Both the position numbers and the translations under genes were made by a program. 64,000 nucleotides of DNA from Chrysomallon squamiferum (Eukaryota > Animalia > Mollusca): the NCBI GenBank assembly GCA_012295275.1, contig CM022670.1, positions 38,378,001-38,442,000 on the forward strand, read 5' to 3'. The notes beneath the pieces are model-generated. The model saw nothing but the letters and a program-made list of their open reading frames with translations. It was not told the origin of the DNA and ran no database searches. Below, in pieces: positions 1 to 61,326 of this stretch. The number at the start of each line of letters is the position of its first letter. Positions within the stretch are counted from its first letter, which is position 1.

Positions 1-1201
1 AAGTCTCTGAGATGAAGAGCTATCCGAAACCAAACTTACGAGTACAGGTTACCATGGCAGCAACGCTGGTTCTTCTGGGCACCCCTCAGCATGAAGTCAA
101 CGTTAGTAATGATTGATTTACTGTTTCATTAAGAAGTCAAATTCTCTCTTGATGATTACATGTTTGTGTATCATCTATAAAACAAATATGTACGTGCACA
201 CGCCTGTTCACCTTTTGAACCCACAAACCACACTGTAGATAAGCTGTTCTGCATATTAACATGGCCGTTATATTTGTGCAGTAAGAGTTTTTGAGAAATA
301 TCTTTTACAGAATGTTTATTATGTTGGTTTTTTTTTTTTTTTTTTTTTTATATTTAATGTGTATGAAGGAATGGATGTTTGTGGCATTCATGCAAAGGAA
401 GTTTTGTGTGAAATTTTTATGCATGGTTATATAAATAAGCAGAATATTTGTATTGTTATGTGACTGACTACATCTTGATATTGATGTGGTAATATATTTG
501 AAGGAGTGGGTATATATGAAATGTCATCCAATAAGGGACTATTGATTACAAGTGGATATTAACTGGTTGCTTTTCTTACAGAACTGGCATCATTTGTAGG
601 AACTGATTTAATGCTGTGGATATTAAATATAAATGCTTATGTTTCTTACAGAACTGGCATCATTTGTAGGAACTGATTTAATGCTGTGGATATTAAATAT
701 AAATGCTTATGTTTCTTACAGAACTGGCATCATTTGTAGGAACTGATTTAATGCTGTGGATATTAAATATAAATGTTTCTTACAGAACTGGCATAATACA
801 GTTACGCTGGTGTGGAAGATTGGAAAGGATGGGCTCCTTAAAAAAATGATGACTTTTAATCCAGCTGATATGCCTTTATCACTTGCCAAAACAGCCAGGA
901 GCATCCTTGGAGGTCTCACACTGAAAGAAATCAGAAGTGCCAGTTCTAGTGCAGCTTCTTTTTTTGAATGGGTAAGTCATAAATCAAGATCATATGACTT
1001 GCACGCTCTCTCTCTCTCTCTCTAAGGATATTTCAAAACAAACGTGACTCATATCACTGGTGCCGTTTGACTTTCAAACTAATTCTCTTGTCAAAAGAGG
1101 TGTGTTTAAACCATCATTCATTTCTTTACAGACAGATCATATGATAAAAGAAATACAGGATGTCAAAGGAGAAGGTGACACTGACTTGAACAAATTAAGA
1201 G
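1..1201 (+). CDS. Paralog A (3' part only) of hillarin/KY-like family; encodes the dynein-MTBD-like C-terminal domain; terminal exon unresolved
   Basis: Exons <1-101 (VSEMKSYPKPNLRVQVTMAATLVLLGTPQHEVN), 786-971 (186 nt, NWHNTVTLVWKIGKDGLLKKM...SSAASFFEW) and 1132-1201 (70 nt, TDHMIKEIQDV...), all GT-AG. Exon sizes and phases match paralogs B and C (186 nt; 70/73 nt). Confidence 0.85.
572..794 (+). repeat. 70-bp tandem repeat (about 3.2 copies) containing the splice acceptor and first 9 nt of the 186-nt exon of paralog A
   Basis: TTTCTTACAG|AACTGGCAT recurs with AG ending at 581, 651, 721 and 785; units are near-identical. Confidence 0.95.
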
Positions 1202-10326: not shown

Positions 10327-11314
10327 ATGGGAATGATTATTTCAATCTTTTTCGTAGAAAAACCACCAAAGGTATTAAGTTATGAAACACGTATTATTTA
10401 GTTTAAAACCATAGTCTATATATTTGGTTCAGGCGTGAATGCTAGTATAAATCTCATATCTTCGGCTTGTACGACTTTCGGAGAGGTAAAAACATTCGCA
10501 CGCATAGACAAACAGCGCACTTCGTAACTGTAGAATAACTTGTTTCTTTGGAGGTCAGAGAAATGTGATGTTTCTTGAATATGTTAAGTAAATAAATTTG
10601 TTGCTCGATAACACTATATTATTTTTAATTCCTATTAATAAATAAAAGGAAAAATATAAATAATAACAATAACAAAAACTAACTAACTTAATAAATAAAT
10701 ACAGAAAGAAAGAAAGAAGATTCTGAGTTTTCAAAAAAGTGTCACATCCATATATTTAAAGATTTACAGGATCTACGTTTGTACACCTATTTTAAAATCG
10801 TATGAACTCAACTGATTCATTGGCTAAATAGAAAATTAAGAACTTTAAATAATCTATTGAAAGTAAATAGGCTATACCATTCCGAATCTATAATATAAGT
10901 ATATCTTGTAATTTGCTCTACTGAAATTGTTATACACAAATGAGAAGGAATACAGGTGCAAACACACACGCACAAGCATTCAATATAATATATAATTGTT
11001 TAATTTCTTTTTTTTACCGTTTAATGGTGACAGAAAAGAAGAGACCCTAGACTTAAAGGAACCATTGTAAGAAGAAAGGTAAATATATATATTTTAATAA
11101 AATAATATTGTAAGTTTGACCATTGTTTATTACACGGACCATGGTTAATACCTTTCCATATTAACTGATGCTATTAATGAAAATGTTCAAGAAAGCATAT
11201 AGTATACGGTACACAGCTGATTGTTATTTTCTTCTTCATTTTATTATTATTATTATATTGGTTGTAAACGTTTTTATTAATATGTTTATTTAAATATTTA
11301 TTTATTTATTTATT

Positions 11315-11492: not shown

Positions 11493-14400
11493 TACTGTTA
11501 TTATTATTCAAGATAAATCATATTTCAGATTAATTAGCATAGTCTTTACTTTTGTTGTTCAGGTGAAAGGTCCGCTAACGCTTGATGATATTATCGATGA
11601 AGGTCCTGATCCATTTCCTCAAATCAGATTAAAGCAAGACATATTCCTAAATGAGAATTTTGAGCATGTAGAAAAGCATGTGGCTGAGGTAGATATCTTG
11701 CGCTAAGTAACTGACATTTATAATAACAGAAACTCTAAAGCTGTATATATGTATGTATGTATGTAACGAATGTATGTACAGAAATACGAATGTTTATATG
11801 TTTGTATGTATTTATGTGTGTGTGTCCAAAGACATGTATGAATGTATTATGTACGTGTGCATATACATACATAATTATCCTGAAATTACAGTATTTAGTA
11901 GGCAAGATATGATGACTAGATACATTTCTATACTTTTGGGATGGAACTATATTTACTTGAATAAGTTACTTGTTATTTGCATATATAGATAATGTTTAAT
12001 TGCTCATCTAAATCTTAAAAGATGATTTTGAAGATAGTTTTTGTTTAAAAAATAACAAATAAATTCTTGTTTGAGAACCGTTTTCTTTTGATGTATAGTT
12101 TTTGTAGTGACAATAAAACGAAGAGCAGTGAGTTGGGAAATAAAATAGTTAATTTGATTTAATTTATTTTTATATTTAGGTCTGCAGGATAAAAAAAAAA
12201 AAATTGTTATCATGTTAATTATCAGCTTTACTCTGTTGAGACTGAATTTACAAATGAGAATATGTATTTATTTGTTTTTATGTATGTATGTGTCTGTGTA
12301 TGTATGCATGCATATATATATATATATATAAATTCTTGGCTGCTACATAAAATAACTTTCATATTTTCATAGTGTACTGAAGATATTCTGACAGGAACTT
12401 ATGATGAACTGGTGAATTTCTTGACTGGCAATACCAAATGGGGTATCGTAGAAAAAGTGAGAGCGATATTTCTGTGGGTGACCTCCCATGACATCTATAA
12501 CCTGAAGGTGAAGGCAGCGCCACCAAAAAACTCTCCTCTGGAATACTTGGTGAAGATAAAGTCACAACAAGGCACTCATGCACACCTGTTTTATGCACTG
12601 TGCCAGTAAGTAAAAAATCCAATGACTGATGATTACGCTGCTAATACAATGGTCGATCATCACTGACACAGAAATCACTGGTTCCATCTGCCTGACATTA
12701 TTCCAGATTTCCCAGGTTGCCTCACAGACTTACTGCCGATCCTTAATGACACTTATTGTTTGAAAATACTGTCCAATCCAGTTTGTTTTATACTCCATTC
12801 ACAGTTATGATCTGCTAGCTTTTAGCCTAATTATTCGTTTCATTCAGTAAGGAAATGCTTCCTGTTGTTTGTAAAGCACAAACGTCATTGTACGTAAAAG
12901 TAAAGGCTAGACTTGTTAAAAAAAAAAAAAAAAAAACCTCAGTAGAAGTATTTAGTGGTGTTTCGCATAGAAAGAGGTGGTGAAATGTTGAAGTATTCAC
13001 ATCTAACCACTCTGGCAAAATTCAATAATCTGACATCTTGCATGCAGGTCCTAGTGATGCCAAATTAGTTTTGGTTGAATGCTTTTATTGCTTTGTTTGA
13101 TTATTTATTTATTCATTTATTCATTCATTCATTACTTATTTATTCATTCTTTCATTCATTCATTCATTCATTCATTCAACAACTGAACATCAGTACTAAA
13201 TAAACAGTGTGCTAGTAAACAAAAACTAAACTTGAAACTGTCTTCCCGCAGATTGGCCAGAGTGCCGTGTGTCATTATAAACGGGATGACGAAGAACTCC
13301 ATGTACCGAGTTGGCAAGAAAGTGGACAGGAAGAAGATGAGCTCGCAGTGGAACGCCGTGTACATGAAAGACCACTGGTGGTTCGTCGACACACTGTGGG
13401 GCTCCAGCCACGTCGTGTCCAAGAAAGACGACTGGAATGCCGACGATCGGAACGTGACTGAGGTGCACAAGCTGAACGAGTTTTTTTTTTTGCCAGAGGC
13501 AGACAAGTTAGTCTACACCCACTTCCCGGACAAAAGCGAATGGCAGCTGCTGAAGAACCCCGTTTCACTCACCGAGTTTGACGAATGCGTCTACGTGCGA
13601 GAAATGTTTCACCTGCTTGGGATGAAGATTACGCCCGAAAGCGAAGGCAATGTGACTCTGTTTACTGAAGATGGAACTATTAAATTATTTTTTTCTTTAA
13701 TCTTCCAGGATTACAGCGAACATTATCAGTTCAAATATCTTCTGAAGAAAAAACAAACCTCTGGTTATGCAGTAGACCAAAGCCTCAAAATGAATGTTTT
13801 CTATGAGCAGTCATTTGACATGGTTAATTATAAACTGCGACTGCCAAAAGAAGGCACATTCAGAATGGAGATTTATGGTCTTGATTTAAGGATCAAGGAT
13901 AGCTTCAGACTAACGTGCTGTTATTTGATAAACTGTACTAAGGATAATAAAACTCTCCTACACTTTCCAGACAATCCACAAATAGGATGGGGCCCGTTTA
14001 AGCCTTTGAAAGATGCTGGATACGTTCCTGTTTCACATCCATTTTCGACTACTTATACAAGTGATGGTGTAGTGCAGATAGTCGTTGCCAGAACACAAGG
14101 TGTTGAAATGTTCCACACCTTGAAGCATGCTGTGATGGAAGACACTAATCTTTTCTGCTATGCACTCTTAGAGAAGCAGCCAAAAGAAATCATTGTGACC
14201 TTGAGACTTCCCGAGCCTGGCGAGTATGGACTGGAACTGTTTAGTCAGAGGAAAGATGAGAAAGAGAAAGCAACCAATGTATGCAACTATTTCATTGTGT
14301 TTGATGGAATCACCGTCCAACACAACCTCTTCCCTAATATTAATAATCAAACTATTGGCATCCATCATATGGGAGAAGAATTAGGTGTTGAACCCGTCAG

Positions 14401-16662
14401 TCATCCTGAAGGCATGATTGAATCACGGACTGGAAAAGAAGTCCTGACATTTAAAGCCCCAGAAGATACGGATTTGGTTTGTGAATTACAAACAAACGAC
14501 GACGAAGCTGAAAAGACGATGAGTGTTAAGAAAACCTACAAACATGGAGAGTGGGCATTTGAAGTGGACCTTCCTGATAGTGGAGAATATGCTCTTAACA
14601 TATATGCTAGGAAAAAAACTGATCCCCAGGTCCTTGACTGCGTGCAGGCCTATTTGATAATGTCCGGTGACAAAGAATCTACGGTGAAAAAGGAACATCA
14701 GAATACACCTATGTCGGGGCTAGTGGAAACCATTGACACCAGTGAAAAAACAGTAATAGTCGAGTTTCCCGAAGATGTGACCAGGCCCGCAGTGGAAATG
14801 CGCAGGAAAGGCTCAATTGTGCCAGCAGAAGAAGTTAAAATCATCACCAAAGGCAACCGACACTTTGCTGAAATGAGCGTGGAAGACTGTGATGGTTACG
14901 TCCTGACCCTTTTCGACCAGACTACTGATGACACGGTCAAATCAAAGGCGATCTATCAGGTCAATATAAGAAGCCCCGATGAAAAGTTTGAGAGCAACTA
15001 CGTGCCACCTAACATGGATGAAAGAATTGATGACATAGAGCCATCCGACGATGAAGAAATTAGTAAGAATTGAAACGTTTCTTAGTTTTTTTTACTGTTA
15101 TTTAGTAAGTGCTTCTGATGCTCCAAATCATAGGTTTTCAACCTGGGGGTCGCGAGATCGTTCTTGAGCGAGAGTATGTTTTAGGTTTTTTTCAACTAGA
15201 CTTGGAAGGAGGAATAAATAAAAACGTGTAGATAGGTTTGGGACCCGTCGTAGTGAGTATAGATTCCTTTTGTACTGTCTTTGGTTGATGAAAATACGGT
15301 AATCCTAGATATTACTGAATCAAATTTTTTAAAGGGGGTCATAAACATATTGAGTTCCTCGTAAGGGAACGCGGTATGAAAATGTTGAAAACCAGTGGTC
15401 TAAATTCTTGCCTTTGGGTTTCATCATAATGTTTATTAAATAATTAAGGAATTAATAACTATTCAAAATTTTCTTTTTTGTTTTCGTCTTTATCATTATG
15501 TGGACTAATCCTATCTGAATTATAATTATACATTTAATTCTACACCTGATGTTGACATCGCTTTTATTATTTGTCTCTTTTCCAGTACAACATTAAACAT
15601 TTTTAAGGGAAACATCCAAATTCAGTTTTTACTTTTGGAAAATTACTGACATATTAACAATATATAAATATATAGATTGATGAAGTTAGCTTTATGAATG
15701 TAAATTGTTGTTCTTTATTCCTCTGTCCTGCTGTATTGGCATAACAAATCAGTAGAAAATAAATAAGTTCAGTCAAATGTTCTTTCTTCTTCCTTGAACT
15801 CTGTTTTTTTCTTTCTTTATCATTTTGAGCCATATTGTTTGAATATGTACATTGCTTTCCCTTTTGCTTAAAACTGGTTCTATTCAATCAACAGTGGCAA
15901 AACGTAGGGAGGCAAGAGAAATGATGAAGAAGGGAATAAACTTGGGAATAGAGTCATTACTTGAGAAGGGAATCGCTCTATTCGAAGAGACGAATCCACA
16001 GAAGGAGGACCGTGTTGTCGTGAGAGCTAAAGAAGAACTGGAAATGTTGAAGGTTAAAAAAGGTATTTTATAAATAATTCAGTTTTCATTCAGTCTATGG
16101 AGAGAGACTGTTCAAAATAAAGAATTTAAAAAATAATAATAATAAAATGATAAAAAAAAAAAAAAAATAATAATAATAATAATAATAATAATTGTTATAA
16201 TTTTATTTTTCACATCAGAACTAATCTGTGCTATACAGGAACGTAAGATTGAGCCCCTCGAGAGAGCCATTAAGAAAGCTCACAAAGTGAACAAAAAAAA
16301 TAAGCTCACTCCTATGATTAACATGGCACAGAAACTCGTTGACCATCTCAGTAAACTGGAGAAACTGAAGCTTTTGATTCTCTCCATGGACCAGAAAACC
16401 ATTTCTGAACTGAGGAGTTACCAGAAGCCACCGAAAGAGGTATTCACCGTCATGTCCGCCACGTTTATCCTTTTGGGCCAAAAGCCAAAAGACGTTCAGG
16501 TGAGTGAATATTTCTTTTTATTTACATGTCTTTCATTTCTTCTTCGTTCTATTCTCTGTCCTCTGTGGGTGTGTTTAGTTTGTTTCTCTGTTACCCTTCT
16601 GTCTTTATCATTAGCTCGGTCTGTGTTTATCTGTGTGTGTTTGTGTGTCTGTGTGTCTGCAT

Positions 16663-16698
<36 letters not shown>

Positions 16699-18507
16699 TT
16701 CATGTGTGACCTCTTTACAAATTAAAGTGTTAACTTATTTTTTACAAACCACTGCAGAGTTCTATATCATCATCACACCTCGTTTCAGCAATGTCGCACT
16801 GTTGGAAAACAAAAAAAAGTAGCGGTTGTATTGTCAACATTCACTGTTACAGAAGATAAAACAATTTGAAACAACAATCTGCAGGCTTCCTGGCAATACG
16901 CTGAAAACTGACCAAATTCATTTGTCTTTTCAGAAACAGAACAGTATTGTCATGTTCTCTGCGTCTGTGAAATGACGATCTCTTTTGATACAAAGCAGTC
17001 AGTCGTGATGACGTGTTAATCAGTACCATTTGTCTTTCAGAAATGGAGCTTTCTTGTCGTGTTGATGACCAAACTTGGAAAAGAATCTCTGATGAGGAAG
17101 GTGAAAACGTTTGAACCTGTTGCTACACCAGTGAATGCTGCCAAAGCTGCGAAGAAACAGCTTGGTGATCTGACTTTGACCCACGTGACATTAGTAAGCG
17201 CAGGAGCGGCCACATTCCACCAGTGGGTAGGTTGAATTCAGTTTATGCATAATGTTTATGCTTGTACAAGTGTGTGTTTTTTGTACAAAACAGGATGTAA
17301 TTTGTTTGTGTGATTGTACAAGTGTATGTATGTATGTGTATGTGTGTGTATATTTGTGTTTATATGTTTGTATGTGTATGTATATGTGTGAGTATATGTA
17401 TACGTGTGTGTGTGTATGATATATATATATATATATATATATACAGATACCGGATCAATTATCCGGACTCCTTGGAGCCTGAGGCTTTCCGGTTTTCTGC
17501 TACCAAGTCATCTAAATACGTAAATAATTAGGCATAAACATTTTAAAATTAAATAAATATAAAGAAAACTGACGATAGACAATTGTGGCGACTCGACACG
17601 TAAACAATGCGGCGAGTGAAAGAACGCCACGCGGCTTGCTAGAGTAGTTCCAGTTTGGTGAGGACAACACCGCTTGCGCGAACTACGAAAATAGCGTCGG
17701 GGAAAAAACCTTCCAGTTTTCTGATCTTTCTGGATTTCAGGATGCTGGATAATTGGTCAGGTACCTATGTATGTGTATACATACATGTGTGTGTGTGTGT
17801 GTGTTTATGTGTGTGCCAAATTGATCTTGTTTTCTGTATTGCAGACAACAAATATGATAGACGAAGTAGAGGAAGTACATGGAGTTAAACAGGAAAGGAG
17901 AGAACAGCTCAGCAAATGTAAGAACAACCCACCTTCATTTATATCTGTTTATTTAGTCATTTATTCACAGTTCATATCCAGTTAAAAAAAAAAAATCAAT
18001 AATATTTTATTCACTGATTAATTCTTTATTTTATTCACTTTTTAATTCTTTATTTTATTCACTTTTTAATTCTTTATTTGATTCATTTATTTATTCATTA
18101 TTTGATTCATTTATTTATTCATTATTTTATTCATCTATTACATTTATTTGTTTTAATATTTCATCCATTTATTTACTTCTCAGATCGTATGTTAATTTTT
18201 TTTTTTTTTTTCAGTTTTATTTTTTTTTTTTTTCCATCTATTCATTTATTTGTCTCTTTATTTTTATATTTTTTTTTTTTTTTTTTTTTTTTATTTTTTA
18301 TTCGACAATCTGTTTTGTATTTACAGTCCGCAGAATGGTTCACCAGGTGAAGCTGCTGAACTGGTTCAAACAACACCAACTGTAAGACAGTTCTACAGTG
18401 CAAATCCTTTCCCACACTCAGGTGATTTTAAAATTTACCTGCTTTATTTTGCTTTGTTTTTTTAAAGATATTTGTCTAATTTGTGTGTGTGTGTACATAT
18501 ATACATG

Positions 18508-27088: not shown

Positions 27089-27545
27089 CACTACAGCTGA
27101 AGGTTAAACAAGATGGCTGCTCGACAAGGAAGCAGCCAATCAGAAACATTAAAAGAACCAAGTCCCCAACTCTTAGAAAAGAAGAAAGGAGTTTGTCAGT
27201 GACAAATTTGTACGTAGAGGCAGCAAAGATTTCGTCCACTGATATAAGACTCATGTTGCTACCCATTAAAGGAACGCGACAAAACGACCTGGGGACCAGC
27301 GGTTCCTTATGTACCCAAAGAAGTTATAATTAAGCGAAAGAGAATAAATTCGTTATCACCATTCTACGAAAAACTCTGATTGTGAAACACAGGAAGGGAC
27401 ATTTTTTATTTGTTTTCAAGTACATCGATAACACGAACACCTGAGGGCGCATGACCAAATCTATTTATCAAGTAAAATCCGGTTTAGATAAAGTGCATTG
27501 TGTGCGTCCGTGTGTATGTTTGTATGAGGGAGACAAAGAATAGAG
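27089..27545 (+). pseudogene. Inverted, internally deleted pseudogene copy of the 56490-57299 gene
   Basis: 27113-27320 (ATGGCTGCTCGACAAGGA...GGTTCCTTATGTACCCAAAG) matches the reverse complement of about 57299-57072 with indels. About 27325-27545 matches the reverse complement of about 55945-55695 (TAAGCGAAAGAGAA, GGGACATTTTTTATTTGT, ATCGATAAC, GAGACAAAG). Confidence 0.88.
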
Positions 27546-38447: not shown

Positions 38448-39588
38448 ATGGGGGTCACAGTATCCAAGGGTAACCCGTCAACGGATAGCACGGACAGCAC
38501 GACGTCATCGTCCAAGGTAAGCTGCCAACGTTTGAGTTTAATCTCTGACAAATTTGAGATAATTTTATTTGCCGGGGAAATGTTATTGTGTATATATATA
38601 TACTTGTTGAAACATATTAAGATTCGTTCTGTTTTGGCGACGAAGATAAAGGATCGATATGCCCAATTTAATTTGTGTTTCTGATCAAATCAGATTGCGT
38701 CGGATTCAAAGATATGAGAAATTTCTGCACGCAAGAGGAACATACGATCTGTTTTCGTTATCAGCTCTTTTCCGTTGTACAGAATTCAGTTTTACTGCCT
38801 ATTTTAGGAAATTCTTGTACATTTTTTAAAAGAAATTTTAATATTTTTTATTTTTTATTTTTATTTTATTTTTATTTTTTTTAAATATAATATTTTATAT
38901 AGAGTTACTGTAACCCTCTCTCCATCAATAAAATTATTATTATTAATTAATTATAATTCTTATAATTCTTATAATTCTTCAGTTACGTTATGAAAAGGTC
39001 AGATTCCGGATACGATTTCCATAACTATTAACAGACTTACGATTTAACCTCGACTGGTTTTACCTTTGATTTGGAAAAAGACGAGTGATTCATGGTTCCG
39101 TGTTGACGTATACGTATAAAGAGTAACACTGTAGTCATTAGTGTAGATCAGTTTAAAAGACTATGGTATGTGATGCTCTGTTTATGTGACACTGTTTGGA
39201 TATCAGTTAATTTTGATATTTATTTCTTATTATTTTATATCTTAATGTGCTGGCAGCTAAAACTTATTAATGGAATTATTTAGAATTTTTTAAAATATGA
39301 ATATATATATATGTATATATATATATATAATGTATATATATATATATATATAAATAAACTGTGTTTTTGCATCATAATTAGAATGATTTTAAATAAATCA
39401 TTATAATTATATTGGGTCATATATGTTTTAACTTTTTATGGTCACTATACATACCCAATACTCTACACAGACTCATAAACCATGAATTTTGTTTCGTCCA
39501 AAAAAACAACAACAACAACACAACAACAACAACAACAAAATTAATTAAATTAAAAAAATATATATATATATTAATAAATAAATTAAAA

Positions 39589-39619
<31 letters not shown>

Positions 39620-40602
39620 ATGAATGAATAAAAATAAAAAACGAAAAAAAAAACAACAACACGTAAACCAAGAAAACAACAAAGGAGCAAATTAATAGGT
39701 GCGTTCAGCACGAAGGAGGAAATTACAACCCAATTTAATTGTTGGTTTGCTGATTTCCCAGCGATAAACCTCTGTTCGGTCAGAAATGAAGTCAACAACA
39801 TTAAAGCAGTTGAGATGATTTATAATTTAAGAATATAATTTAAAGAAATGAGGTATTAAAGGTGAGAGTTAAAAGAAGGACAAAAGGAAAAACAATCTAT
39901 TTAACAAAATAAATAAATAAATAAATAGTTAAATAAATAAATGTAAATAATTAAATAAATAGTTAAATAAATAAATATAAATAATTAAATAAATATTAAA
40001 ATTAATAAATGTAAATAATTAAATAAATATTAAAATAAATAAATGTAAATAATTAAATAAATATTGAAATAAATAAATGTAAATAATTAAATAAATATTA
40101 AAATAAATAAATGTAAATAATTAAATAAATATTAAAATAAAAATTTACAATAAAATAAAATAAAATATAAATATAAATAAATAAATGCAGTAGTAGCAGT
40201 AATGGTAGTAGTGGTAGCATTAGCACTTACTTACAGATATGAATTATTTTCAATTTTCAGTCAGATGCACAGTCAAATGGAAAAACACCAACAAATCAGA
40301 AAGAGCTCCCCCTCCCATCCCGCCAAAGAAGAAAAAACAAGAAATCTTCAATGAAAAAGACTACAAACATGTAGCCACACACGTTTCCAAGGTAACTGTG
40401 ATGTAGCTTCAGCCCATGGCTATGTAAATAAATACATAATGAGACGAACGTACACAAATATAAACTACTTATAGGACACAGTCTTTGTGAAACTAAAGTT
40501 CATTAGCTCTCTTTCTTTCCATCTCTGTTCTTTATTTCTCTCTATCTCTCTTTTTTTGTCCATCTCTCTTCCTTATATATATTTATAGCTTGACAGATAA
40601 AG

Positions 40603-40658
<56 letters not shown>

Positions 40659-40708
40659 TCATAAATACATACAACGTACACATATACATACATAAATACA
40701 TACATACA

Positions 40709-40740
<32 letters not shown>

Positions 40741-41483
40741 CACACACATACATACACACACACATGTATATCTGTGTATATATAAACTGTAAATGCACAC
40801 ATGTAAAAGACTCTAATCATTCTGAAGATAGATATTTATTTATAAAATTCTCGGAAAATCAGGCACAAACTAACCACAACGAAATACTACGTTATAATTA
40901 CACACGCGTTCATTAATCTTGCATGTCTCCAAGCCAGCGTGGCCCAGTTTACACGATCCCACACTTTCCAATATTAATAAATAAATAATCAGACGACTTT
41001 CTGCTTTGCAAATGTTCGAGCTCTTTTGCGTAAGAGATAGAACGTTTACCTATAGTGTATACGTGCGTTTGTGTATGTTTGTCTGTGAAAAGTTCTCCGA
41101 TAATAATTAACACAGACACACATACGCACGCACGCACGCACACACACACACAAACAGAGCCGTAAATAATGGTCAAAATAACATTATAATTCAGATGAGC
41201 CAGCAACCTGGTTTAATGATGGCATAAACGATATTATACTCTTTGTTTCCCCAGTCTGTGTTATTACTGTTGTTACGAATGACTCTTCACGTTAAACAGT
41301 CTGCTAAAAATAATAAGAATCCTTCTGACAGATGACTCGGTTAATCCTATTGACACGATTTCTCTTCATTAGAACCAACAGCGATATCAGTTTTGATCTA
41401 GTTGACGTTAATTTTTTTTTTTTTTCTTCTTTATTATTGTTATGTCTCGTTGGTTGTTGATAAAATAGGCCAAGGTTGAGTAA

Positions 41484-41541
<58 letters not shown>

Positions 41542-44500
41542 TTTCTTTTTTTTTCTCTCTTTTTTTCCCCTCTTCTTCACGCTTTCAACATGGCCACATG
41601 CGCGGGGAAATGATCAATAAATAAATTATACGTAAAATCGTGCGTGAATTGAAATAGATTTAATATTATATGACGTACTTGCTGCAGAGATCTAAATAAA
41701 CCATGGACACCAAGCATTGATGATGATGATGACATAATAATAATAATAATATATAGTACAACAGTAGTAGTAGTAGTCGTAGTAGTGATAATAATAATAA
41801 TGATGATAATAGCCCAACAACGACGACAACAATGACAACAATAATAATATTATAATAATAAAAAAATAATAATTACAGTAAAAACAATAACAACATCGAC
41901 TGCAATAATAATAGTAGTAGTGGTGTTAGAAGAAGTAAAAAGTAATAACCACAACAACCAAAACGACAACAACAGTCACAATAATAATAATAAGAAGAAG
42001 AAAACGAAGAAGACGAACAACAACAACAACAACAACAATAATAATAAGAAAAGAAGACGAAGAAGAACAACAACAATAACAACAATAAAAGTAAATATTT
42101 TTTTCTTTATATGTTTTTGTATTAGGCTCCCGAAGGTCTGGCTAAAGGAACGTTCAGGGAACTTGTGGATTATCTCACAGGAACCCCTGGATGGGATGAC
42201 CTGGCTAAAGTGAGGGCCATCTTCCTTTGGCTGACGTCAGTGGACATCTACAATATGAAGATTGACACGGAGCCCCCGAAATATTCTCCAATGGAATATT
42301 TTAAAAAGATTCAGAACAATCAAGGAAATCACGCTCATCTGTTTTCAGGACTTTGCCAGTAAGTGTCGTCAGTTTCTAGAACTTGGTCAGTAAGTGCTGA
42401 AATATTTCTGGGATACTGTCTGTAAGTGTCGTTAATTTCTAGGATTTTGTCAGTAAGAATCGTCAGTTTCTAGAACTTGATCAGTAAGTACTGAAATATT
42501 TCTAGGATTTGTCAGTAAATATCGTTAATTTCTAGGATTTTGTCAGTAAATATTGTTCACTTCTAGGACTCTGTCAGTAAGTAGCGTTAATTTCTAGGAT
42601 TTTGTCAGTAAATATCGTCAGTTTCTAGAACTTGATCAGTAAGTACTGAACTATTTCTAGGATTTTGTCAGTAAGTATCGTTAACTTCTAGGACATTGTC
42701 AGTAAGTATCGTTAATTTCTAGGATTTTGTCAGTAAATATTGTTAACTTCTAGGATTTTGTCAGTAAGTATCGTTCACTTCTAGGACTGTGTCAGCAAGT
42801 AGCGTTAATGTATTTTACAAGACTTGGTAGGTTAATGTGTAGTACAAAATTTAAAAGACGTTTACAACAAATGTTCGTTCATTTATTCAGTATGAATCGT
42901 TTAATTTAATTTAATTTTTTAAAAGGTTATTATTGATTTTTGTTTAATTTTATTCGTATATGATTAAATTTATATTAAATGTATTATATTTTTTAACACA
43001 ATTTTATTTTAATCTGTTATATTTTTCAATTTGTATTTTTGTTTTATTTATCTTTTGTTCCATACTTCTGATTTGTTTCTAATTTAATTCCAAAATAACA
43101 AATTCAAAACGTTCAATAAATGAGTGAATGAATAATAATAACAATAATAATTAAAAAAAAAAGAAAATGGATACCTTATTCTGACTATTAATATCTCATA
43201 TTTTCAATTTATCTTTGATCTTTTAAAAATTCAGTAGCTTATTTTTTTAAAAATATTGCTATTTGTACCAAATAATTTTAAACAAATGGTTTAATTTTCT
43301 ATGTAATCATTTTTACATATTTCTTTCTTTCTTTCTTTCTTTATTTCTTTATTTATTTTTTAAATTTTTTTTTTTTTTTTAAATTGTTTTAGGATGGCTA
43401 ACATCCACTGTATGATTGTGAGCGGAATGAACAAAAGTGCTGCGTACCAGATCGGAAAGAAAGTGGACAGAAAGAAGATGGGAGCCCAGTGGAACGCGGT
43501 CTACGTTCAGAACACCTGGCGCTTCGTCGACTCGTTCTGGGCGTCTGCGTGCGTCGTGGGGCGTCGTTCGGGCGAGTGGGAGCTCGTCGACTCCGAGGGA
43601 AACGTCAACGACTCCGAGGGAAACGTCCACGACGAGGTCGAGGTTCAGGAAGGAAAGACGGAGCACAGAGTGAACGAGTTTTACTTCCTGCCGGACCCGG
43701 ACCAGCTCATTTACACCCACTTTCCAGACGAAAAGCAGTGGCAGCTTCTGGAGAAGCCGCTGACCGTCGCAGAATTTGAAAAACACTTCTACGTTCGAGA
43801 GAGGTTCCACATCCTGGGAATGAAAACGACCAATGAGAGTCACAAAGAGGCCGTGATAAAGGCCGCCGACGGAGAAGTCAATATCTGTTTCGCTCTAGCG
43901 AACAAAGACAGCGAGCACTACAGGTTCAAAAACATGCTGTACAAATCGAGAAAAAACGAAGATTCCGGCAGCAAGATAGACATGTTCCTCGACCGATTCG
44001 TCTTCTTTGAACATTCCCCCACCATGGTCAACTTCATTCTGCGCTTTCCCATGAAAGGCGTCTTCAAGATGGACATCTACGGCTTGGACGTGAGAGAATC
44101 CGACATATTTGACCTGGCCTGTACGTACCTCATCGAGTGCCCGCAACCGAGGAAGAACTGCCTGCCTCTGCCGGACTGTCCGCAGATAGGCTGGGGGCCT
44201 GGGGCAGCGGCTGCGAAGGCCGGACTCAAACCTCTGTCCCACGACACGGCTACCATCGTCACGAAAGACGGCAAAGTGAACATCGAGCTCGCCACGACGA
44301 CCGGCTTGAAGGTGGAACTTCACCAGGGCCTGAAGCACACGGCCATTGACGAGGCGACGCTCAGCAAGTACGCGGTCACCGAGCAGGACAAAGACAAGAC
44401 GACCGTCAGGCTCCGTCTTCCGCAGACCGGAGAGTACGCGCTGAAGCTGTTCGCGCAGGAATCGGGCAAGAAGGGCGAAGCGCCCAACGTGTGCAACTAT

Positions 44501-45504
44501 CTCATCAAGTGCGAAGGAGTCGATTCCAACGGGGAACAGTTCCCGCACATCGCTGGAGGCGTGCTGGGCAAGCATCACCTCGCGGACAAGTTCGGGGTCA
44601 AGGCTTTGAGTCACCCGGGCGGGACCTTGGAGGCTAAAGACGGAAAACTGTCGGTCAACTTCGCTGCCAAGGACGGCGTTGAGCTCATCTGCGAACTGTA
44701 CACGAACAACTCCTCGGCGGCGAAAACCATGGCCGTGGCCACGAAGAACGAGAACGGCGAGTGGGTGTTCGACGTGGACGTTCCGAAGTCCGGGGAGTAC
44801 TCGCTGAACGTGTTCGCGAGGGACAAGAACGAGCCGACTCGCATCCACAGCGTTCACTCCTACCTGCTGACGTCCGCCGGGAAACCCGGCTTCCAAGAAG
44901 AAGACGACGACGGCGAAGGCAGCAGAAAGACGCTCAACATACCGACGGAGACGGTGGAGACGTCCGAAAACGAAGCCGTCGTGCCCATACCTCCAGGATG
45001 CAACAACCCCAGGGCAGAAATATACAGACGCAACGCCAACGAGTCCCAGGACTCCAACAAGATCGGCATCATCCAGGACGACGACATGCAGCTGGTGTCC
45101 GTCAAGATGAAGGACTACGGCGACTACATGCTCGATATATACGACACCGACGACGACGGAAACGTCAGCATCGTCGCGCGGTATCAGCTGAACAGGAAAA
45201 GGCCGGGAGAGCTGTACACGAACAATCTGAAGACGATCATGGAAACTCTTCAGGAGGAAGGCGTGAAACCCAGTAGCGAGCTTGAAGAAAACGACGACAA
45301 CAGAGCCCAACAGACTGACGGTAAATCTACAAGTCTTAAAATAATCGCTTCATGATGACTATATAATAGTTATATATAGCTTAAAACAGGAATATGGATC
45401 ATTGCAGTTTGAAAAAAGGAGAAGAAAAAATAAAAGGAAGAAACATAAAATAAAATATAATAAATAAAATTAAATATTATAATAATAATAATAATAATAA
45501 TAAT

Positions 45505-45547
<43 letters not shown>

Positions 45548-46402
45548 AAATAAATAAGTAGGTTAGTAAATAAATAAATAAACGAATAAATAAAATACAA
45601 TAAAATAAATAAATAAAAAATAAAAATAAATTAAAATGGTAAACACATTTAAAAGATAATAGTAAAAAGTTGAATCCATAGAAAAATGAAAACTCGATAG
45701 GTAGTTTCCATTTATATAATGTACAAAATAAACTAAAGAAAAAAGAAGGAAAACAAAATATAAAGAAAAAGGAGAAAGAAAGACATTTACTGAAATAATT
45801 AACAAATTTGTGCTTAAGTAAGCATTGTTAGAGCAATCTTAAAAGTGTAAAGATGTCTGTTTTGTGTTTCGTCACAAAAAAATGTTCTAATGCCAATGGT
45901 TCTTTAAAAAATAAATACCAGTATTTCATAGTTTGCTACTTAAGACAGAAAAACATATCTATTTAAATTTAAATATGAAATCGTAGATTATAATATATAA
46001 ATATATATATAATCGTATATTCACATTAAGCCAAATTGACTGGCATACCGCCATGTTATTTCAGAATTTGATAATATTAATGATATGAATGCAGATAAAT
46101 ATGTTTTTTTCTAAGGTGTCAGAAAAAGGCAGATTGCCCGGGGTATTCAGTTATCTAAAGGTATTTATTTATAAACTAACAAAGGCTGCATGAAACCCCT
46201 TTTAGTTCTAATCAGTTCCATAGAAAACAGCATGTGTAGACAGTTTCCTGTTAAAACGCGTAACAACCCGTAGAGTCGTCACTAACATGTACAGCATAAT
46301 AGAGGTACCTTTTGTGAACACACAGCAGAAATATATAATAATTTTCTTTAAAACCCCAACCAAACCAACAATATATATTAAAAAGACACCCACACAAACA
46401 GA

Positions 46403-46444
<42 letters not shown>

Positions 46445-48167
46445 GACGCACACTCACACACATGCATTCATACGTGCTTGCGTACATACCTCTATATATA
46501 CATAACCATACAAACTTACATACGTATATATACACAAATACATACGTATGTACGTACATATTTTCCTACAGACATACAGATAGTCAGACGCACATACATG
46601 CTAAGACATGCACATGCAGGTCTAGTAGAACAGTTCATAAACCAAAGACAGGATCGTGACTAATCATCAAATAGCCGAGTATAATAGTATATAGATATAC
46701 CGCCTTGATGAAATGAATACCATTACGCCGTACTATACTATCATGATTTATTACTAACCTGAACGAGCAAACATAGTTTATGTTAAATAATATACAGTAG
46801 GATATAGTTACTAACCTCTGTCTGCACTTAGATACATACACATACACAGTACACAGACAAATATCTACAAATATATGTATATATATATAGAGATAGATAT
46901 ATACACACACACACATACACACACAACCATACATACACAAATATAAATATATAGATAGATTAGATAGATAGACAGATAGATAGAGAGATAGACGTACATA
47001 AATTGATACACAAATATTTATGTATGTATGTATGTTGTATGTATGTATGTATGTATGTATGTATGTATGTATGTATGTATGTATGTATGTATGTATGTAT
47101 GTATATGTATGTATGTCTGTATGTATGTATTATATATATATATTGCCTAGGACGGTAAAGTAACGTGGGCGGGGCAACAGGGGCGTTAGCCTTGGGCGCA
47201 AAATTATTAGGTTCTCCACTGGACTGGTGCAAGGAACTCGTTGTGGACTAAGCTCCTCGGGTTAGGGGGACGCGATTCTAGCCTTGTCCCGGGCGCTGTT
47301 TGTGCATTCGTGTCATATGGAAGACATTTTAGATGTTATGGTTTGTATTTTTGAAGAGATATGCAAGCATGTTTGAATTTTGCATTGGATTATTCATATT
47401 GTCCGATTCGTCTGTTTCGTTTCATCTTGTGATTTTTTTTTCAGATTATTTTATTAACTGAAAATATAATTTGATTAGTTAAAAGACATATAATGTTATG
47501 TAACATAATGCACCGTAACATAAGCTAGTAATATAACGTAATGAAGTATATTGTAATATAATATAATATAATATAATATAATATAATATTAATGCAAAAA
47601 TGTCACAGAAGACTATTTCATTACTCAAAACTATAAAAAAAAAAAAAAAATTAAGCTGATAATTAATATAATGAACGCGTTGGAAAATTGAAAATATTAC
47701 TTTATTTATTTATTTATTTATTTATTTCAGAGGAGAAACGGATAATTGCCAATCGACACTTAGAGCGTGCCTTGAATTTAAAAGATGAACAGCAACTGGA
47801 GAGAGCGATCGCTCGATACCTCGAAACCAATCCACCGGAAGATGATCCTCTGCTGAAAAAGGCGAGAAATCAAATGACAGTGCTTAAAGCGAAATACGGT
47901 AATTATTGGATCGGTTTGAAATTACACCATCCCGATTTGTAAAGTGGCTGACCCGGAGCATAATGTTTTATATAGACCTGGTTTTAATAATAATAAATCT
48001 TTTAACAACTACTACTACTACAACTACTACTACTATTAATACTGATTTTATAGTTTCAGTGAATTATTTTCCCTGCTATTACCTGGCCCGAAGATCGCAC
48101 TCAAATGACCTTGAGCTTGTGTCGTCTGGGCCACATTTATGTGTTAGCTGGGCTTGTGTTATTTCTA

Positions 48168-48212
<45 letters not shown>

Positions 48213-48302
48213 TTTTTCTCGCCTTTGCTAATAAATAAGTTTTCTAAATAACAAACGTGGTATTTTATTGTCAAAGTCATTTTAGTAAAGACTGAGTCAA
48301 GC

Positions 48303-48334
<32 letters not shown>

Positions 48335-51334
48335 TGATGATGATGATATAAAATTACAGTATGGAATAAATTCAATTGTTTTGATACTGATTATGATGAT
48401 GATGATAATAATAATAATAATAATGACGACAACAACATAAATAATTATTAAAAAATGTAAGCCATTAATTTAGATTCTTTCTGCTAATAATAAACTATAA
48501 ATATATATATAAATGTTATTTTTGTTTCTTTCTTCAGTTTTACAATGCTTTTTATTTATTTATTTATTATATTTATTTATTCTGGGTTTAAAACTACAAA
48601 CGAAAATGTCTGCGATGGGTTTTTTCACTTCTTTTCGTAGCCTTGCAAGAAGCTTCTCAGAAACGGGATGCGAAGGCTCTGGAAGCCGCCATTAAAGAAG
48701 CCAAATCCGTGAACAAGAACCGGGAACTCAACCTACAGATCGCCTTGGCTGTCAAACTGAAGGAACATTTAGCCCGGATCGAGAAACTCAGACACGCCGT
48801 TCTGCACATGGAGCAGACGACGATCTCGGAACTGAAGAGTTATTCGCAGCCACCAGAAGGTTTACCTCCTGTAATGGCGGCCACTTTCATTCTGCTGGGA
48901 AGTAAGCCTTCAGAGGTGAAGGTTAGTGGCGTACGAATATTAATAACATAAATAAAATAAAATACTTAAACAGGTAAAATAAATAAGTAAATAAGATAAG
49001 ATAAGATAAGATAAAATAAATAAATAAAATAAAATAAATAAATAAAAAGAATTACATTAAGTAAATATATATAAATAAATAAATAGATAATTAGATAAAA
49101 TAATTATAAATAAAAAAATAAATAAAAAAATAAATAAATAAATAAATCAATCAATAACTGCATTAACCTGTATTGTATGCATTCTTTTGTCTTTTTTAAA
49201 TATAAATTTCTCTTTCCTTTAAACATAAGCTGTAAATTGTAGTCTGAGTGATTAATTAAATAGTTTTCAGTTATTCTAGATTTCTGTCAGTTAATTAATA
49301 AAATAAAATAAATAATATAATAAAATAAAATAAAATTAATAATATACATCAAGTTAAATAAAAACGCTCATGTAATAATACTACTGACTGACAGAAATCT
49401 AGAATAACCGATAACTATTTAATTAAACACCCAGACTACAGTTTAACGCTTATGTTTAAAGGAAAGAGAAATTTATATTTACAAAAAGACAAAAGAATGC
49501 ATACAATACAGCTTATTGCAGTGAATACACACCATCAGTTCTCGTAACACATTCACATATAAAATACATAAACCTAGAAGAAGAGCCTAAACTTACAAGA
49601 CAGATCGGTACAGACTTCTAAAATTACAATTCTCAGAAATGGCGAAACGTTTTGGTTCTGATGGGGAAGACTGGAAAGGAGTCGCTCATGAGGAAAGTGT
49701 CGCTGTTTAATGCGCAGAACGTGCCGCTGTCGTCTGCCAAGTCCGCTAAGAAGGCTCTCGGCGACATCACGATGGACCAGGTGCATTCAGTCAGTTCCGG
49801 AGCGGCCACGTTTTTTCAATGGGTAAGTCAGCCGTCAATGTCGGAAGTAAAAACGTTTAGGTTCACTGACCCGTGAAATTTTATTTTAAAAAAAAAAAAA
49901 AAAAATAAAAAAAATTATGTTTCTGTTCTTGTTTTTAAACACAGACACAAAGATATCAGTTTTTGTTTTAAATGCTGGTGGTTTTTTTTTTTGTTTTTGT
50001 TTTTTTGTGGGGGGTTATTATAAAGATTCAGCGACATAAATAAAATTTCAGTTTTTCAATACTGTTAAAAAATAAAATTTTAGAGAATCAATGGTAAAAA
50101 TTTAATTTTTCTAAAAAGAATCGACGTTTTACAAGAGATTTAAAGACTTTTTTTGTGGCTGTGTTTTTTTTTGTTTTTTTTTTTAAATAAAATAAAATTT
50201 GTTTAAAAAGCTCAGTAAACCCTAACCAAAAATTCGTCGAATAAAAATCTTTATAGTTTGTGGTTTTATTTATTATTATTATTATAATTATTATTATTAT
50301 TATTACTATTATTATTTAATGTGTTCTCTATTTTTGTTTTTGTTATTATTCATTTTTTTCGTCGTATTTTTAAATTGTCTTTTTGTTTTGGGTTTTTTTT
50401 TTTTAATCAGTAAATGTTTTATGTTAAAGACATAAAATTTCTGGAATAACCTTCAGGTGTTTTTTTTGTGCGTGTTCTTTAGTTTTGTTATTATTATTAT
50501 TCATTTTTTTCTTCGTATTTTTAATTTTTTTTTTTTTGGGTTTTTTTTTTTTTTATCAGTAAAATGATTTATGTTAAAGATATTTTTTTTTTTTTTTTTT
50601 TATTCATTTTTTTAAAATTGTTTTTTTGTTTTGGTTTTTTTTTTTTTTTTAATCAGTAAAATGATTTATGTTAAAGATATAAAATTTCTGGAATAACCTT
50701 CAGGTTTTTTTTTTTTCTTTCTTATTTTATTTTATTTCAGGCTACCAGTATGATAGAAGAAGTAGAATCATTCGGCGGAGCAGAAGCTGCCGATTCGAAA
50801 CGTTTGAAACGTTAGTGGAGAAAAACAGATTTATTTTTATCAAGTTTTTACATAATTATATCATACTCTTAGAGTCACGTTTTAACATAATTATATTATA
50901 CTCTTAGAGTCACGTTTTAACATAATTATATCATACTCTTAGTGTCAAGTTGTTGGGGTTTTTTTAATTAAAATTTAGAATTGGCAATTTGTTAATGAGT
51001 AAAACGATATTCTGTTTTGTTTCTTTTTTTTTTTTTAGTCGCGATTCTTTTTATCGTTTATTTATTTTATTTTATTTTATTTTATTTTATTTTAAGTTTC
51101 ATTTTATTTTATTTTATTTATTATTGTTATTATTTTTTTTTTAACTTTTTTATGTTTATGTTTATTTTTATTATTTATTTATTTTTTTTTGTATAGCTTT
51201 TTAAGAAAGGTTTTTATTTTTTTTTTTTTACTTTTTGTAAATTTTTTTTTTTTTTTTTTTTTTTTTGCGTAGACTTTTGTCTTCGTGCCAGTTTTTATAT
51301 CGGATTAGCTCATGTGTACATGGGGATATACTGA

Positions 51335-56489: not shown

Positions 56490-57299
56490 CTATGAAAACG
56501 GGTCGACCTCTTTCTCCAGCTCGTTCTCGTACCGCTTGGAAAACCTGAGGTAGCGACACGCCTTCAGTTTGTCCCATTCCACCTGCTGCTTCTCCGTCCA
56601 CCTCTTCTCCGGCTCCTCTTCCTGCAGCTCCGCGTGCTGGATCCCGTGCGACAGATCTCGAAGCAGACGATCCGTCGATATGTTGATGGAGCCCCTCCTC
56701 TGCACAGAGCGGTTACCGCCCGGGGAGAGGCTGTTCTGGGCGGTCGACGCCTCTTCCAGTCCGCCGGACGAGTCCTCGAGAATTGGGACTTGGACTTGGA
56801 CTTGGACCTGGACCTGGACGTTCGGCACTGATCGCGATCGATCGCGCATCTGCGGGAGATGAAGCGCGCGCCTCGCTTCAGAGCGGCTGTCGTCTGCTTG
56901 TTCCCCGCCGAAATCCGCTCCTTTCGCAGCAGTCTCCGGCGTTGGCGTGTCCGCTCGGTTTGGACCGAAGTTCGGACTGCTTCGCGTCATGGACGGTCTT
57001 CTCATCTTGTTTCCAGACGTTGCTGGACGCTGAACGACGACGGTGTTTTCGCTCAGATCGCTGACCAGAATCTTTGGCACGTAAGGAACCGATGGCCCGC
57101 AGGTCTTCGGTCGCGTTCCTTTATTGGGCAGCAGCAGCATGTGTCCTCTCGCGATGGCCGAAGTTTTGCTGCTGCCTCTACGTACAAATTTGTCAGGTTC
57201 CGTGAATCTCACTGACAGACTCCTCTCTTCTTTTCTGAGAGTTGGGGACATGATTCTTCGAGTGTTTGCCGATCTGCTGCCTCCTTGTCGAGCAGCCAT
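56490..57299 (-). CDS. Uncharacterised single-coding-exon Ser/Arg-rich protein (269 aa) with C-terminal WDKLKACRYLR motif
   Basis: GC-rich open frame with an acceptor about 30 nt upstream of the ATG. Its C-terminal ~55 aa are clearly homologous to the 333-aa ORF (RRGSINIS...LRDL.HGI.H.EL...WT..+Q.EWDKLK.CRYLR). Confidence 0.8.
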   Translation of the reverse strand: MAARQGGSRSANTRRIMSPTLRKEERSLSVRFTEPDKFVRRGSSKTSAIARGHMLLLPNKGTRPKTCGPSVPYVPKILVSDLSENTVVVQRPATSGNKMRRPSMTRSSPNFGPNRADTPTPETAAKGADFGGEQADDSRSEARRALHLPQMRDRSRSVPNVQVQVQVQVQVPILEDSSGGLEEASTAQNSLSPGGNRSVQRRGSINISTDRLLRDLSHGIQHAELQEEEPEKRWTEKQQVEWDKLKACRYLRFSKRYENELEKEVDPFS

Positions 57300-60324: not shown

Positions 60325-61326
60325 TCAAGAAAGGACGTCCGACACATTCTCTTCGTTATCCGCACGAATCCTCAAGTATCGGCATGACTTCAGTTTATCC
60401 CATTCCGACTGCTTCTCGGCGGTCCAGCTGCTGCTGTCGTTGCCGTCTCCCAGCTCGATGTGAGAGATGCCGTGCCACAGGTCTCTGATGAGGAGGTTGA
60501 CGGAGATGTTGATGGAACGTCGTCTCTGCGGAACAAGGCTTCCGCTTCTAGACCTTGGAGTCTGATCGAGACTCGAGCTGCTGGAACTTCTGGACAAGCT
60601 CCTCGGTTCCTGCGCGTCGCCCGGTTCGGTTTTCTGTTCTCTCGCTCCGCAGACGACCTCGTCGTCGGCAACGTCGAGCACGGAGTTCCACCGCGTGGAC
60701 AAGGCCAGCGAGTTAGAAGAATAAGAGTTCCTCTCTTCGGAAAGATGTTCGGAACACTCCGTGACCTCCGGCACTCCGTCCACGACGATCGAAGGAAGGC
60801 AGGTGAAACGCGACAACGTTGACAACGACGACGACGCTTGTCTTTGATTTGACAACGACGAAGCAGACCTGTCGTCGTCGTAAAACGACGCCTGGGAAGA
60901 TGCCGACTGACAAACCGCGGCGAGTTGAGCATTTTCTGTTTCTCTTTCGGAACTGTTCGTTTTCTTAGCTCGGCTCGAAGAGCAGCGAGCAGATTTCGAA
61001 GTCACGTGACTTTCCGGCAAGCCAGCGCTGCAAGACTTGGGACGTTGTTGTTGTTGGTGGTAGTGGTGGTGGTAGTTGTTCACGGGACTCAGATTCTGTC
61101 TTTCTGCTGCTCTCCTTGGAGTCGATGGAGACGTGATTCCTTTGTTTCGCCTCAGCACTTCTGGGCTGCATTTCTTTCTCAGCTGTTTCTGCTGCTGATT
61201 CATGTCCTGTATGACAGTCTCCGCGTTCACTTTCAACTTTCTGATCTCTCTGTTCAGCTGTCTGGTCGCCAGTAAGTTCTTCTGAATGAGATCCGTCTCC
61301 GTCTGCTTCTTATAAAACACTTCCAT
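60325..61326 (-). CDS. Uncharacterised single-coding-exon protein (333 aa): N-terminal coiled coil, Ser-rich middle, C-terminal WDKLKSCRYLR motif (possibly CCDC190-like)
   Basis: Long GC-rich ORF with ACAATGG start context, heptad-like N-terminus and a C-terminal motif shared with 56490-57299. The CCDC190 resemblance is from memory only. Confidence 0.82.
   Translation of the reverse strand: MEVFYKKQTETDLIQKNLLATRQLNREIRKLKVNAETVIQDMNQQQKQLRKKCSPEVLRRNKGITSPSTPRRAAERQNLSPVNNYHHHYHQQQQRPKSCSAGLPESHVTSKSARCSSSRAKKTNSSERETENAQLAAVCQSASSQASFYDDDRSASSLSNQRQASSSLSTLSRFTCLPSIVVDGVPEVTECSEHLSEERNSYSSNSLALSTRWNSVLDVADDEVVCGAREQKTEPGDAQEPRSLSRSSSSSSLDQTPRSRSGSLVPQRRRSINISVNLLIRDLWHGISHIELGDGNDSSSWTAEKQSEWDKLKSCRYLRIRADNEENVSDVLS

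Follow-up and report, generated by a model that had tools for sequence, protein, structure and literature searches.

We found that a gene of Chrysomallon squamiferum, here called gene C, encodes a predicted protein ending in a dynein-type stalk head without a motor, an assignment that profile matches and a predicted fold confirm. The gene lies in a 64,000-nucleotide stretch of contig CM022670.1 (assembly GCA_012295275.1, positions 38,378,001 to 38,442,000), hereafter the window. In order, its product comprises a pseudo-transglutaminase of KY type, four Ig-like domains, a pair of helical hairpins and the stalk head, and it lacks an AAA ring (Table 1). The case is real: an already known domain appears in a non-motor setting that is new and widespread. 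We found no description of the architecture or of the module family in the literature covered, which comprised main texts from mostly non-subscription sources.

Table 1. Paralogs in the window and exons of gene C, in window coordinates.
Feature	Coordinates	Strand	Description
Paralog A	1..1201	+	3' end only; exons 1-101, 786-971, 1132-1201
Paralog B	11563..17985	+	Architecture as in C; head on exons 16219-16499 and 17041-17226
Gene C	38448..50815	+	Eight GT-AG exons
Gene C exon 1	38448..38516	+	Starts MGVTVSK, predicted N-myristoylation signal
Gene C exon 2	40261..40391	+	131 nt; linker rich in proline and lysine
Gene C exon 3	42126..42358	+	First half of transglutaminase-like core; Gln replaces catalytic Cys
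Gene C exon 4	43393..45320	+	Remaining core and four Ig-like domains
Gene C exon 5	47731..47898	+	First helical hairpin of the C-terminal module; placed by RNA loose end and model
Gene C exon 6	48641..48921	+	Second hairpin, CC1-like helix, H1-H2 including invariant Glu
Gene C exon 7	49637..49822	+	H3-H6, basic GKTGK loop, start of CC2-like helix
Gene C exon 8	50741..50815	+	End of short CC2-like helix and stop

Exon placement on GT-AG boundaries gave three plus-strand tandem paralogs in the window, A, B and C. The motifs that the original prediction had quoted for C, B and A are all present and fall into a single frame once GT-AG introns are removed. The frame of gene C is open over 956 codons from exon 3 (42126) to the stop, and that of paralog B over 981 codons, with B's first exon not located and the end of its last exon approximate. 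For B, no MGxxx[S/T] first exon was identified, a start upstream at 10327 being the one putative candidate. B and A do end like C: B is identical to C at 408 of 958 columns and at 59 of 102 in the head, A at 42 of 95 head columns, and head intron positions and phases match among all three. The Gigantopelta aegis ortholog, P0002, shares 72% identity with gene C over 958 columns and 81% over the 148 residues of the head region (48 of 62 residues in exon 7), and the first seven residues are common to both. Relative to the ortholog, exon 2 of gene C shifts out of frame close to a C-rich stretch (about 40305-40322), through an assembly slip, an alternative acceptor or a real lesion.

Exon 6 of gene C scores weakly by itself against Pfam MT (PF12777; E 0.043) because the head is split across exons. 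Since it is spread over three of them, profile and structure tests were run on P0002, which passed Pfam MT with 33.5 bits (cut-off 24, E 3.1e-8, profile positions 94-213). It was the only one of the 29 proteins scanned to pass this cut-off, and E<=0.1 was reached by six. All 11 best PDB sequence matches of P0002 were dyneins or chains labelled AAA+ ATPase in 8GLV, a Chlamydomonas axoneme entry, the best match being DNAH17 (E 1.5e-8). A profile built only from EF-hand-type relatives (see below) found C, B and A in a three-sequence database with E values of 4e-45, 5e-41 and 7e-28, respectively. The closest sequence matches are axonemal dyneins for P0002 and cytoplasmic dyneins for the EF-hand-type members. 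That automated pipelines might already flag the head had been anticipated, and PF12777 is indeed precomputed on 1 of the 120 listed homologs.

The predicted structure points the same way. For the model of the last 238 residues of P0002 (pLDDT 89.7), every Foldseek row listed to rank 19 is a dynein. Against 48,161 representative chains, the top matches of the head model are mouse dynein-1 heads, with Z 16.5, rmsd 1.6 Å and 119 aligned residues for 5AYH (mouse dynein-1 3284-3405), while the hairpin part alone gives structural matches of Z <=8.1. The full P0002 model (pLDDT 87.6, pTM 0.80) comprises a disordered N-terminus, an enzyme-like core, four beta-sandwiches, two helical hairpins and then the head unit, a six-helix head between a 25-residue CC1-like and a 20-residue CC2-like helix. 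The HMMER/Pfam and Foldseek routes suggested in the original prediction, taken on the ortholog, both lead to the dynein stalk head. The accompanying claim of an absent motor also stands: neither the Pfam scan nor the full model of P0002 contains an AAA domain, and C, B and 320 proteins with the module, up to 1902 aa long, are all devoid of a dynein-type Walker A motif. The AAA+ ring with Walker A and long antiparallel stalk that define a dynein heavy chain are not found.

Set beside the dynein stalk head (the middle of PF12777; 5AYH, 3ERR, 6RZB, 6KIO, 8I3J), the module has the same six-helix head with CC1-like and CC2-like flanks, at 16-21% identity to the best-aligned dynein heads. It keeps the H1 Glu and next basic residue, the Pro-Pro turn, the H3 Trp, the H6 Ser and the CC2 Trp. 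Unlike dynein, the gene C protein has no long stalk, its CC2 stopping at about 20 residues, and gene C-type proteins carry two helical hairpins before CC1. The GKTGK insertion between H3 and H4 is family-specific and missing in the aligned dyneins.

The "hillarin/KY" label given earlier to the upstream half fits on its KY side and fails on its hillarin side. P0002 matches Transglut_core with 27.9 bits (cut-off 23) and then Ig-like_KY with 215 bits; exon 4 of gene C matches PF23265 (E 4.5e-67), and three of its four Ig-like domains score as Ig-like_KY. Hillarin carries an N-terminal LIM domain, whereas Pfam found no LIM match in 29 of 29 homologs, and the model shows disorder over residues 1-35 of P0002. 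No SH3 domain was found in the gene C-type fusion. With the triad positions set by human KY spacing (Cys225, Cys236, Cys243, His267, Asp282) rather than by aligning KY, gene C reads Gln, Ala and Asp, with the Ala in place of the catalytic His and the retained Asp both in exon 4. Among relatives the Cys is present in 0 of 47 rows, the His in 0 of 49 and the Asp in 43 of 49; in a wider set the Cys and His are present in 0 of 91 and 0 of 97 rows. Judged from these residues, the enzyme-like domain is dead through loss of its catalytic Cys and His, in agreement with the pseudo-transglutaminase originally proposed.

KY, hillarin, LTD-1 and Cyk3 have the same order of Transglut_core then Ig-like_KY. 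According to excerpts of the papers cited here and below, human KY retains Cys225-His267-Asp282 (PMC13434911), in contrast to the gene C family, and Cyk3 is inactive like the gene C domain (PMC10848947, PMC3718969). A dynein-type head goes unmentioned in the excerpted literature on KY, hillarin and Cyk3, and by these descriptions sets gene C apart. Among solved structures, the enzyme-like half best matches Chlamydomonas FAP246 of the central-pair C1b projection (7N6G, 7SQC), both by sequence (E 1.7e-10) and by fold (Foldseek E 5.8e-14). The sequence match is confined to the transglutaminase-like region and leaves the head unmatched; the FAP246 domains listed in the excerpt are LRR, TGC and EF-hand (PMC6548120). 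Inactive domains of this fold, several of which are ciliary, have been described, again in excerpts, as adaptors that bind peptides (PMC3495828, PMC3623635).

The original prediction had overlooked a feature of the other end of the protein. Of the fusions with an N-terminal lead, 64 of 84 begin with Met-Gly, and Ser or Thr occupies position 6 in every one of these 64. An MGxxx[S/T] start is the N-myristoylation pattern; it occurs in 28 of 42 fusions among 50%-cluster representatives, against a background of 8 in 2053 internal Met. Gene C fits this pattern, and in 12 fusions a Cys lies close by as well. All six amphioxus CLCA/VWA proteins and all four CD20-like proteins that we checked have hydrophobic segments ahead of the module, which would place the module of these proteins in the cytoplasm. 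Carriers lacking the enzyme domain (EF-hand-type and others) show the myristoylation pattern in 9 of 130 cases, so membrane attachment is not universal.

The head had been read as a one-off fusion, a view that gives way to that of a mobile, animal-wide C-terminal module found in 548 protein clusters at E<=1e-10. At E<=1e-3, a five-sequence module profile reached 1182 clusters, 150 of them listed, with weaker matches that may include dyneins. Of 122 complete cases, 99 have the module <=40 residues from the C-terminus. In a Pfam scan of 87 listed proteins, the longer ones among 136 new, Ig-like_KY was found in 38; EF-hand, CLCA/VWA, laminin-EGF, ephrin-receptor-like and CD20-like proteins were the other carriers, with CARD added in two. 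Only 4 of these 87 representatives passed the Pfam MT cut-off. Pfam therefore misses most members, and databases name them "trichohyalin-like", "KY" or "uncharacterized".

The survey across animals that had been suggested returned the KY fusion in molluscs, annelids, a brachiopod and amphioxus. Because amphioxus has it too, the KY fusion is probably older than the divergence of protostomes and deuterostomes, barring two separate origins. The EF-hand/charged-rod form occurs in cnidarians, spiralians, echinoderms, hemichordates, amphioxus and tunicates; two sponge proteins bear the module, and the EF-hand fusion is the form in sponges and cnidarians. No vertebrate, arthropod or nematode names appeared among 120 rows or the 24 named of 30 clusters looked up; the listing covered 150 of 1182 matches. 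A module tree, made by a quick method from those 88 of 150 rows to which an architecture was assigned, has poor resolution and leaves the order of fusions unfixed. It groups A, B and C with P0002 (support 94) within a group of 11 rows (99), the named ones being from molluscs.

Several members of the wider family deserve mention in their own right. P0122, P0157, P0222, P0201 and relatives form a conserved EF-hand, charged-rod and dynein-head family, mostly named "trichohyalin-like", which is a candidate calcium-regulated microtubule binder. P0206, P0235, P0260, P0261, P0246 and P0218 are CLCA/VWA, laminin-EGF and CD20-like membrane proteins that end in the module and come from amphioxus, a tunicate and a hemichordate. 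P0228, a KY-type protein of 1437 aa, has three near-identical head copies, which are either a genuine repeat or the product of a fused gene model. In the ESM Atlas, clusters 136-180 aa long take automated names from PF12777; Atlas scores of 0.90 and 0.81 serve as leads only.

We then compared the head with the tubulin-contact surface of dynein. In yeast dynein, excerpts give the contact residues as K3117, E3122, R3124, R3152, R3159 and R3201, with each basic contact mutation cutting affinity more than twofold (PMC7042235); the Glu pairs with alpha-tubulin Arg402/403 (PMC7042235, PMC4298687), and the interface consists of H1, H3 and H6 (PMC6629372). Mapped by sequence alignment rather than docking, gene C retains three of the six yeast salt-bridge positions, E3122, R3124 (as Lys) and R3152, and loses K3117 (Gln), R3159 (Gly) and R3201 (Ser). 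Across 50%-cluster representatives, the H1 Glu is invariant (141 of 141 rows) and the R3124 position, two residues after it, is Lys or Arg in 114 of 141. The K3117 position is Gln in 90 of 140 and the R3159 position Gly in 90 of 141, the next residue, at the H3 end, being Lys or Arg in 113 of 141; the R3152 position is basic in only 56 of 145. Where dynein has the H6 Arg (R3201), the family frequently has an acidic residue (Asp or Glu in 73 of 141), and the residue before is Arg or Lys in 87 of 141. Gene C is also without this shifted Arg. Bovine DNAH17 has Ser at the H6 position and Arg one residue earlier, so dyneins vary there too. The gene C head carries a net charge of +5, while a few others have no net positive charge (-2 in 3 of 68 rows). 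This conserved but altered surface, as far as aligned residues can tell, would make binding likely, though weaker or re-geared. The Z scores of the head model (5AYH 16.5, 3ERR 16.1-16.5, 6RZB 13.6, 6KJO 13.3, 6KJN 12.9) are no lower for heads that are unbound or of low affinity than for bound heads, a comparison that map quality confounds and from which the binding registry is not readable.

Similar folds occur in other chains from motor-free complexes, at scores (Z <13 for a helical model) that are suggestive only. Residues 440-587 of chain C in the Chlamydomonas radial-spoke entry 7JTK, presumably RSP2, match the head model with Z 11.1, and residues 1207-1457 of Toxoplasma 9YA2 chain L with Z 9.9 (rmsd 3.1 Å, 125 aligned). 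Like the module, both stand in complexes free of a motor; they differ from it in their flanking domains, and neither appears among the sequence matches listed. By its size, 9YA2 chain L would be ICMAP2. In the excerpt available, ICMAP2 sits on the microtubule with an 8-nm repeat and dynein is not mentioned (PMC12819142), and 9YA2 chain L may be a solved motor-less head on a microtubule. These precedents would cut both ways, with an ICMAP2-size chain on a microtubule and the other chain in a spoke. Two further radial-spoke or axonemal chains have a similar head fold, 7JRJ chain I 461-534 (Z 7.1) and 9E5C chain 2e (Z 6.9).

Taken together, the reading that we favor, at what we judge to be even chances, is that gene C encodes a predicted lipid-anchored, ATP-independent tether from membrane to microtubule. 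Its predicted myristoylated N-terminus would sit at the membrane, the dead enzyme domain could bind peptides as an adaptor, and the Ig domains would serve as a spacer between membrane and lattice. The head would grip the tubulin lattice at dynein's site without ATP. The two helical hairpins would stand in for the stalk, so that no ATPase cycle would shift the CC1/CC2 registry; in an excerpted study, the act of binding a microtubule itself brought a short-stalk yeast head into the high-affinity registry (PMC7042235). The grounds for such a tether are the fold, the conserved Glu face, the +5 charge, the myristoylation pattern, the hydrophobic segments in CLCA/VWA and CD20-like carriers and the ICMAP2-size Toxoplasma chain. 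Against it we count the loss of three of six contacts, the acidic R3201 position, the few neutral or acidic heads, the same fold in a radial-spoke chain, the scarcity of the myristoylation pattern in non-transglutaminase carriers and the out-of-frame exon 2. As to the cellular site, we lean towards ciliated cells (ciliary or apical membrane) over the cleavage furrow or muscle, because the best solved match of the enzyme half is the central-pair FAP246.

Because gene C keeps three of six contacts and the H6 Arg is often acidic, the head may instead keep the dynein fold for a non-tubulin partner, or for self or helix pairing, in a membrane-anchored adaptor like Cyk3, hillarin and KY. The lost or charge-reversed contact positions, the GKTGK insertion and the radial-spoke chain of the same fold suit this idea, as do relatives that work, in excerpted reports, at the cleavage furrow or the Z-disc (PMC3718969, PMC13434911). 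However, the invariant Glu and following basic residue are dynein's tubulin contacts and persist from sponges to chordates, and the Ser at the H6 position is shared by bovine DNAH17; we regard a non-tubulin partner as less likely than the tether, though it is the strongest competitor. Less probable still is a weak or diffusive microtubule binder, which would compete or exert drag where dynein binds, or would serve as a regulated sensor (e.g. through calcium in EF-hand carriers), instead of anchoring under load. A reduced contact set, the Z scores that favor unbound or low-affinity heads at least equally, with their map-quality confound, and the EF-hand fusion of sponges and cnidarians would fit such a binder, but Z differences cannot call the registry, and membrane anchoring and clustering would raise avidity. 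A candidate "MTBD-like" motif in TTLL11 was set aside, as the term refers to TTLL6/7 and not to dynein.

Extending the tether to the whole family is more tentative, and we hold the following joint claim with somewhat less than even confidence. The family may be an unrecognised group of non-motor microtubule-binding proteins, from sponges to invertebrate chordates, in which a detached dynein head became attached time and again to membrane anchors (myristoylated pseudo-transglutaminases, single-pass receptors and four-pass proteins) and a calcium-sensing rod, giving membrane-to-microtubule links, perhaps ciliary, at dynein's site. The dynein head is usually treated as part of a motor, in which the ATPase controls affinity by way of the stalk. 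An ancient family that naturally lacks the motor would reveal how the head behaves without ATPase control and would supply ready variants to probe its contacts. If the head does bind, the family would add a class of microtubule-associated protein in most invertebrate phyla and provide candidates for membrane-to-microtubule links.

These readings presuppose that the transcript of gene C is one piece. RNA contigs cover exon 4, and one contig (depth 2.5) exits this exon at 45320 and reads the first 24 bases at 47731, which bears out, at junction 4-5, the predicted splicing of the transglutaminase/Ig exon to the first helical exon. Of the RNA runs, X4 is without cover and X1 and X2 give short pieces, and they are uninformative on expression level. 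The module is present in all 11 long Logan homologs chosen from the homolog list; their contigs, 3.2-5.3 kb in length, barely exceed the coding sequence and are probably transcripts. Annotated gene models with the same fusion exist in molluscs, annelids and a brachiopod. Junctions 5-6, 6-7 and 7-8 are supported indirectly by intron phases, Logan contigs and the models of relatives. Read support in this species reaches junction 4-5 only, and single window exons score weakly, yet an artefact in which broken-dynein exons or a chance helical likeness were joined in silico to a KY-like gene is hardly credible given three paralogs with an open frame and matching phases, the RNA at junction 4-5, the Logan contigs and the recurrence of the fusion from molluscs to amphioxus.

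Three further features of the window were observed. Just upstream of the head exon of paralog A, positions 572-775 hold 2.9 exact copies of a 70-bp unit that includes the splice acceptor and first bases of this exon; the copies are either decoy acceptors or an assembly duplication. The head-splitting intron of gene C contains a long inverted repeat (49157-49522; arms of 40 and 100 nt, 92-95% complementary) that looks like a miniature inverted-repeat element. Two single-exon, largely low-complexity open reading frames on the minus strand (56493-57299 and 60328-61323) match no Pfam family above cut-off and have in common a C-terminal motif of 61 residues (57% identical, E 1e-17); a frameshifted remnant of the N-terminus of the first lies near 27145-27330 on the plus strand.
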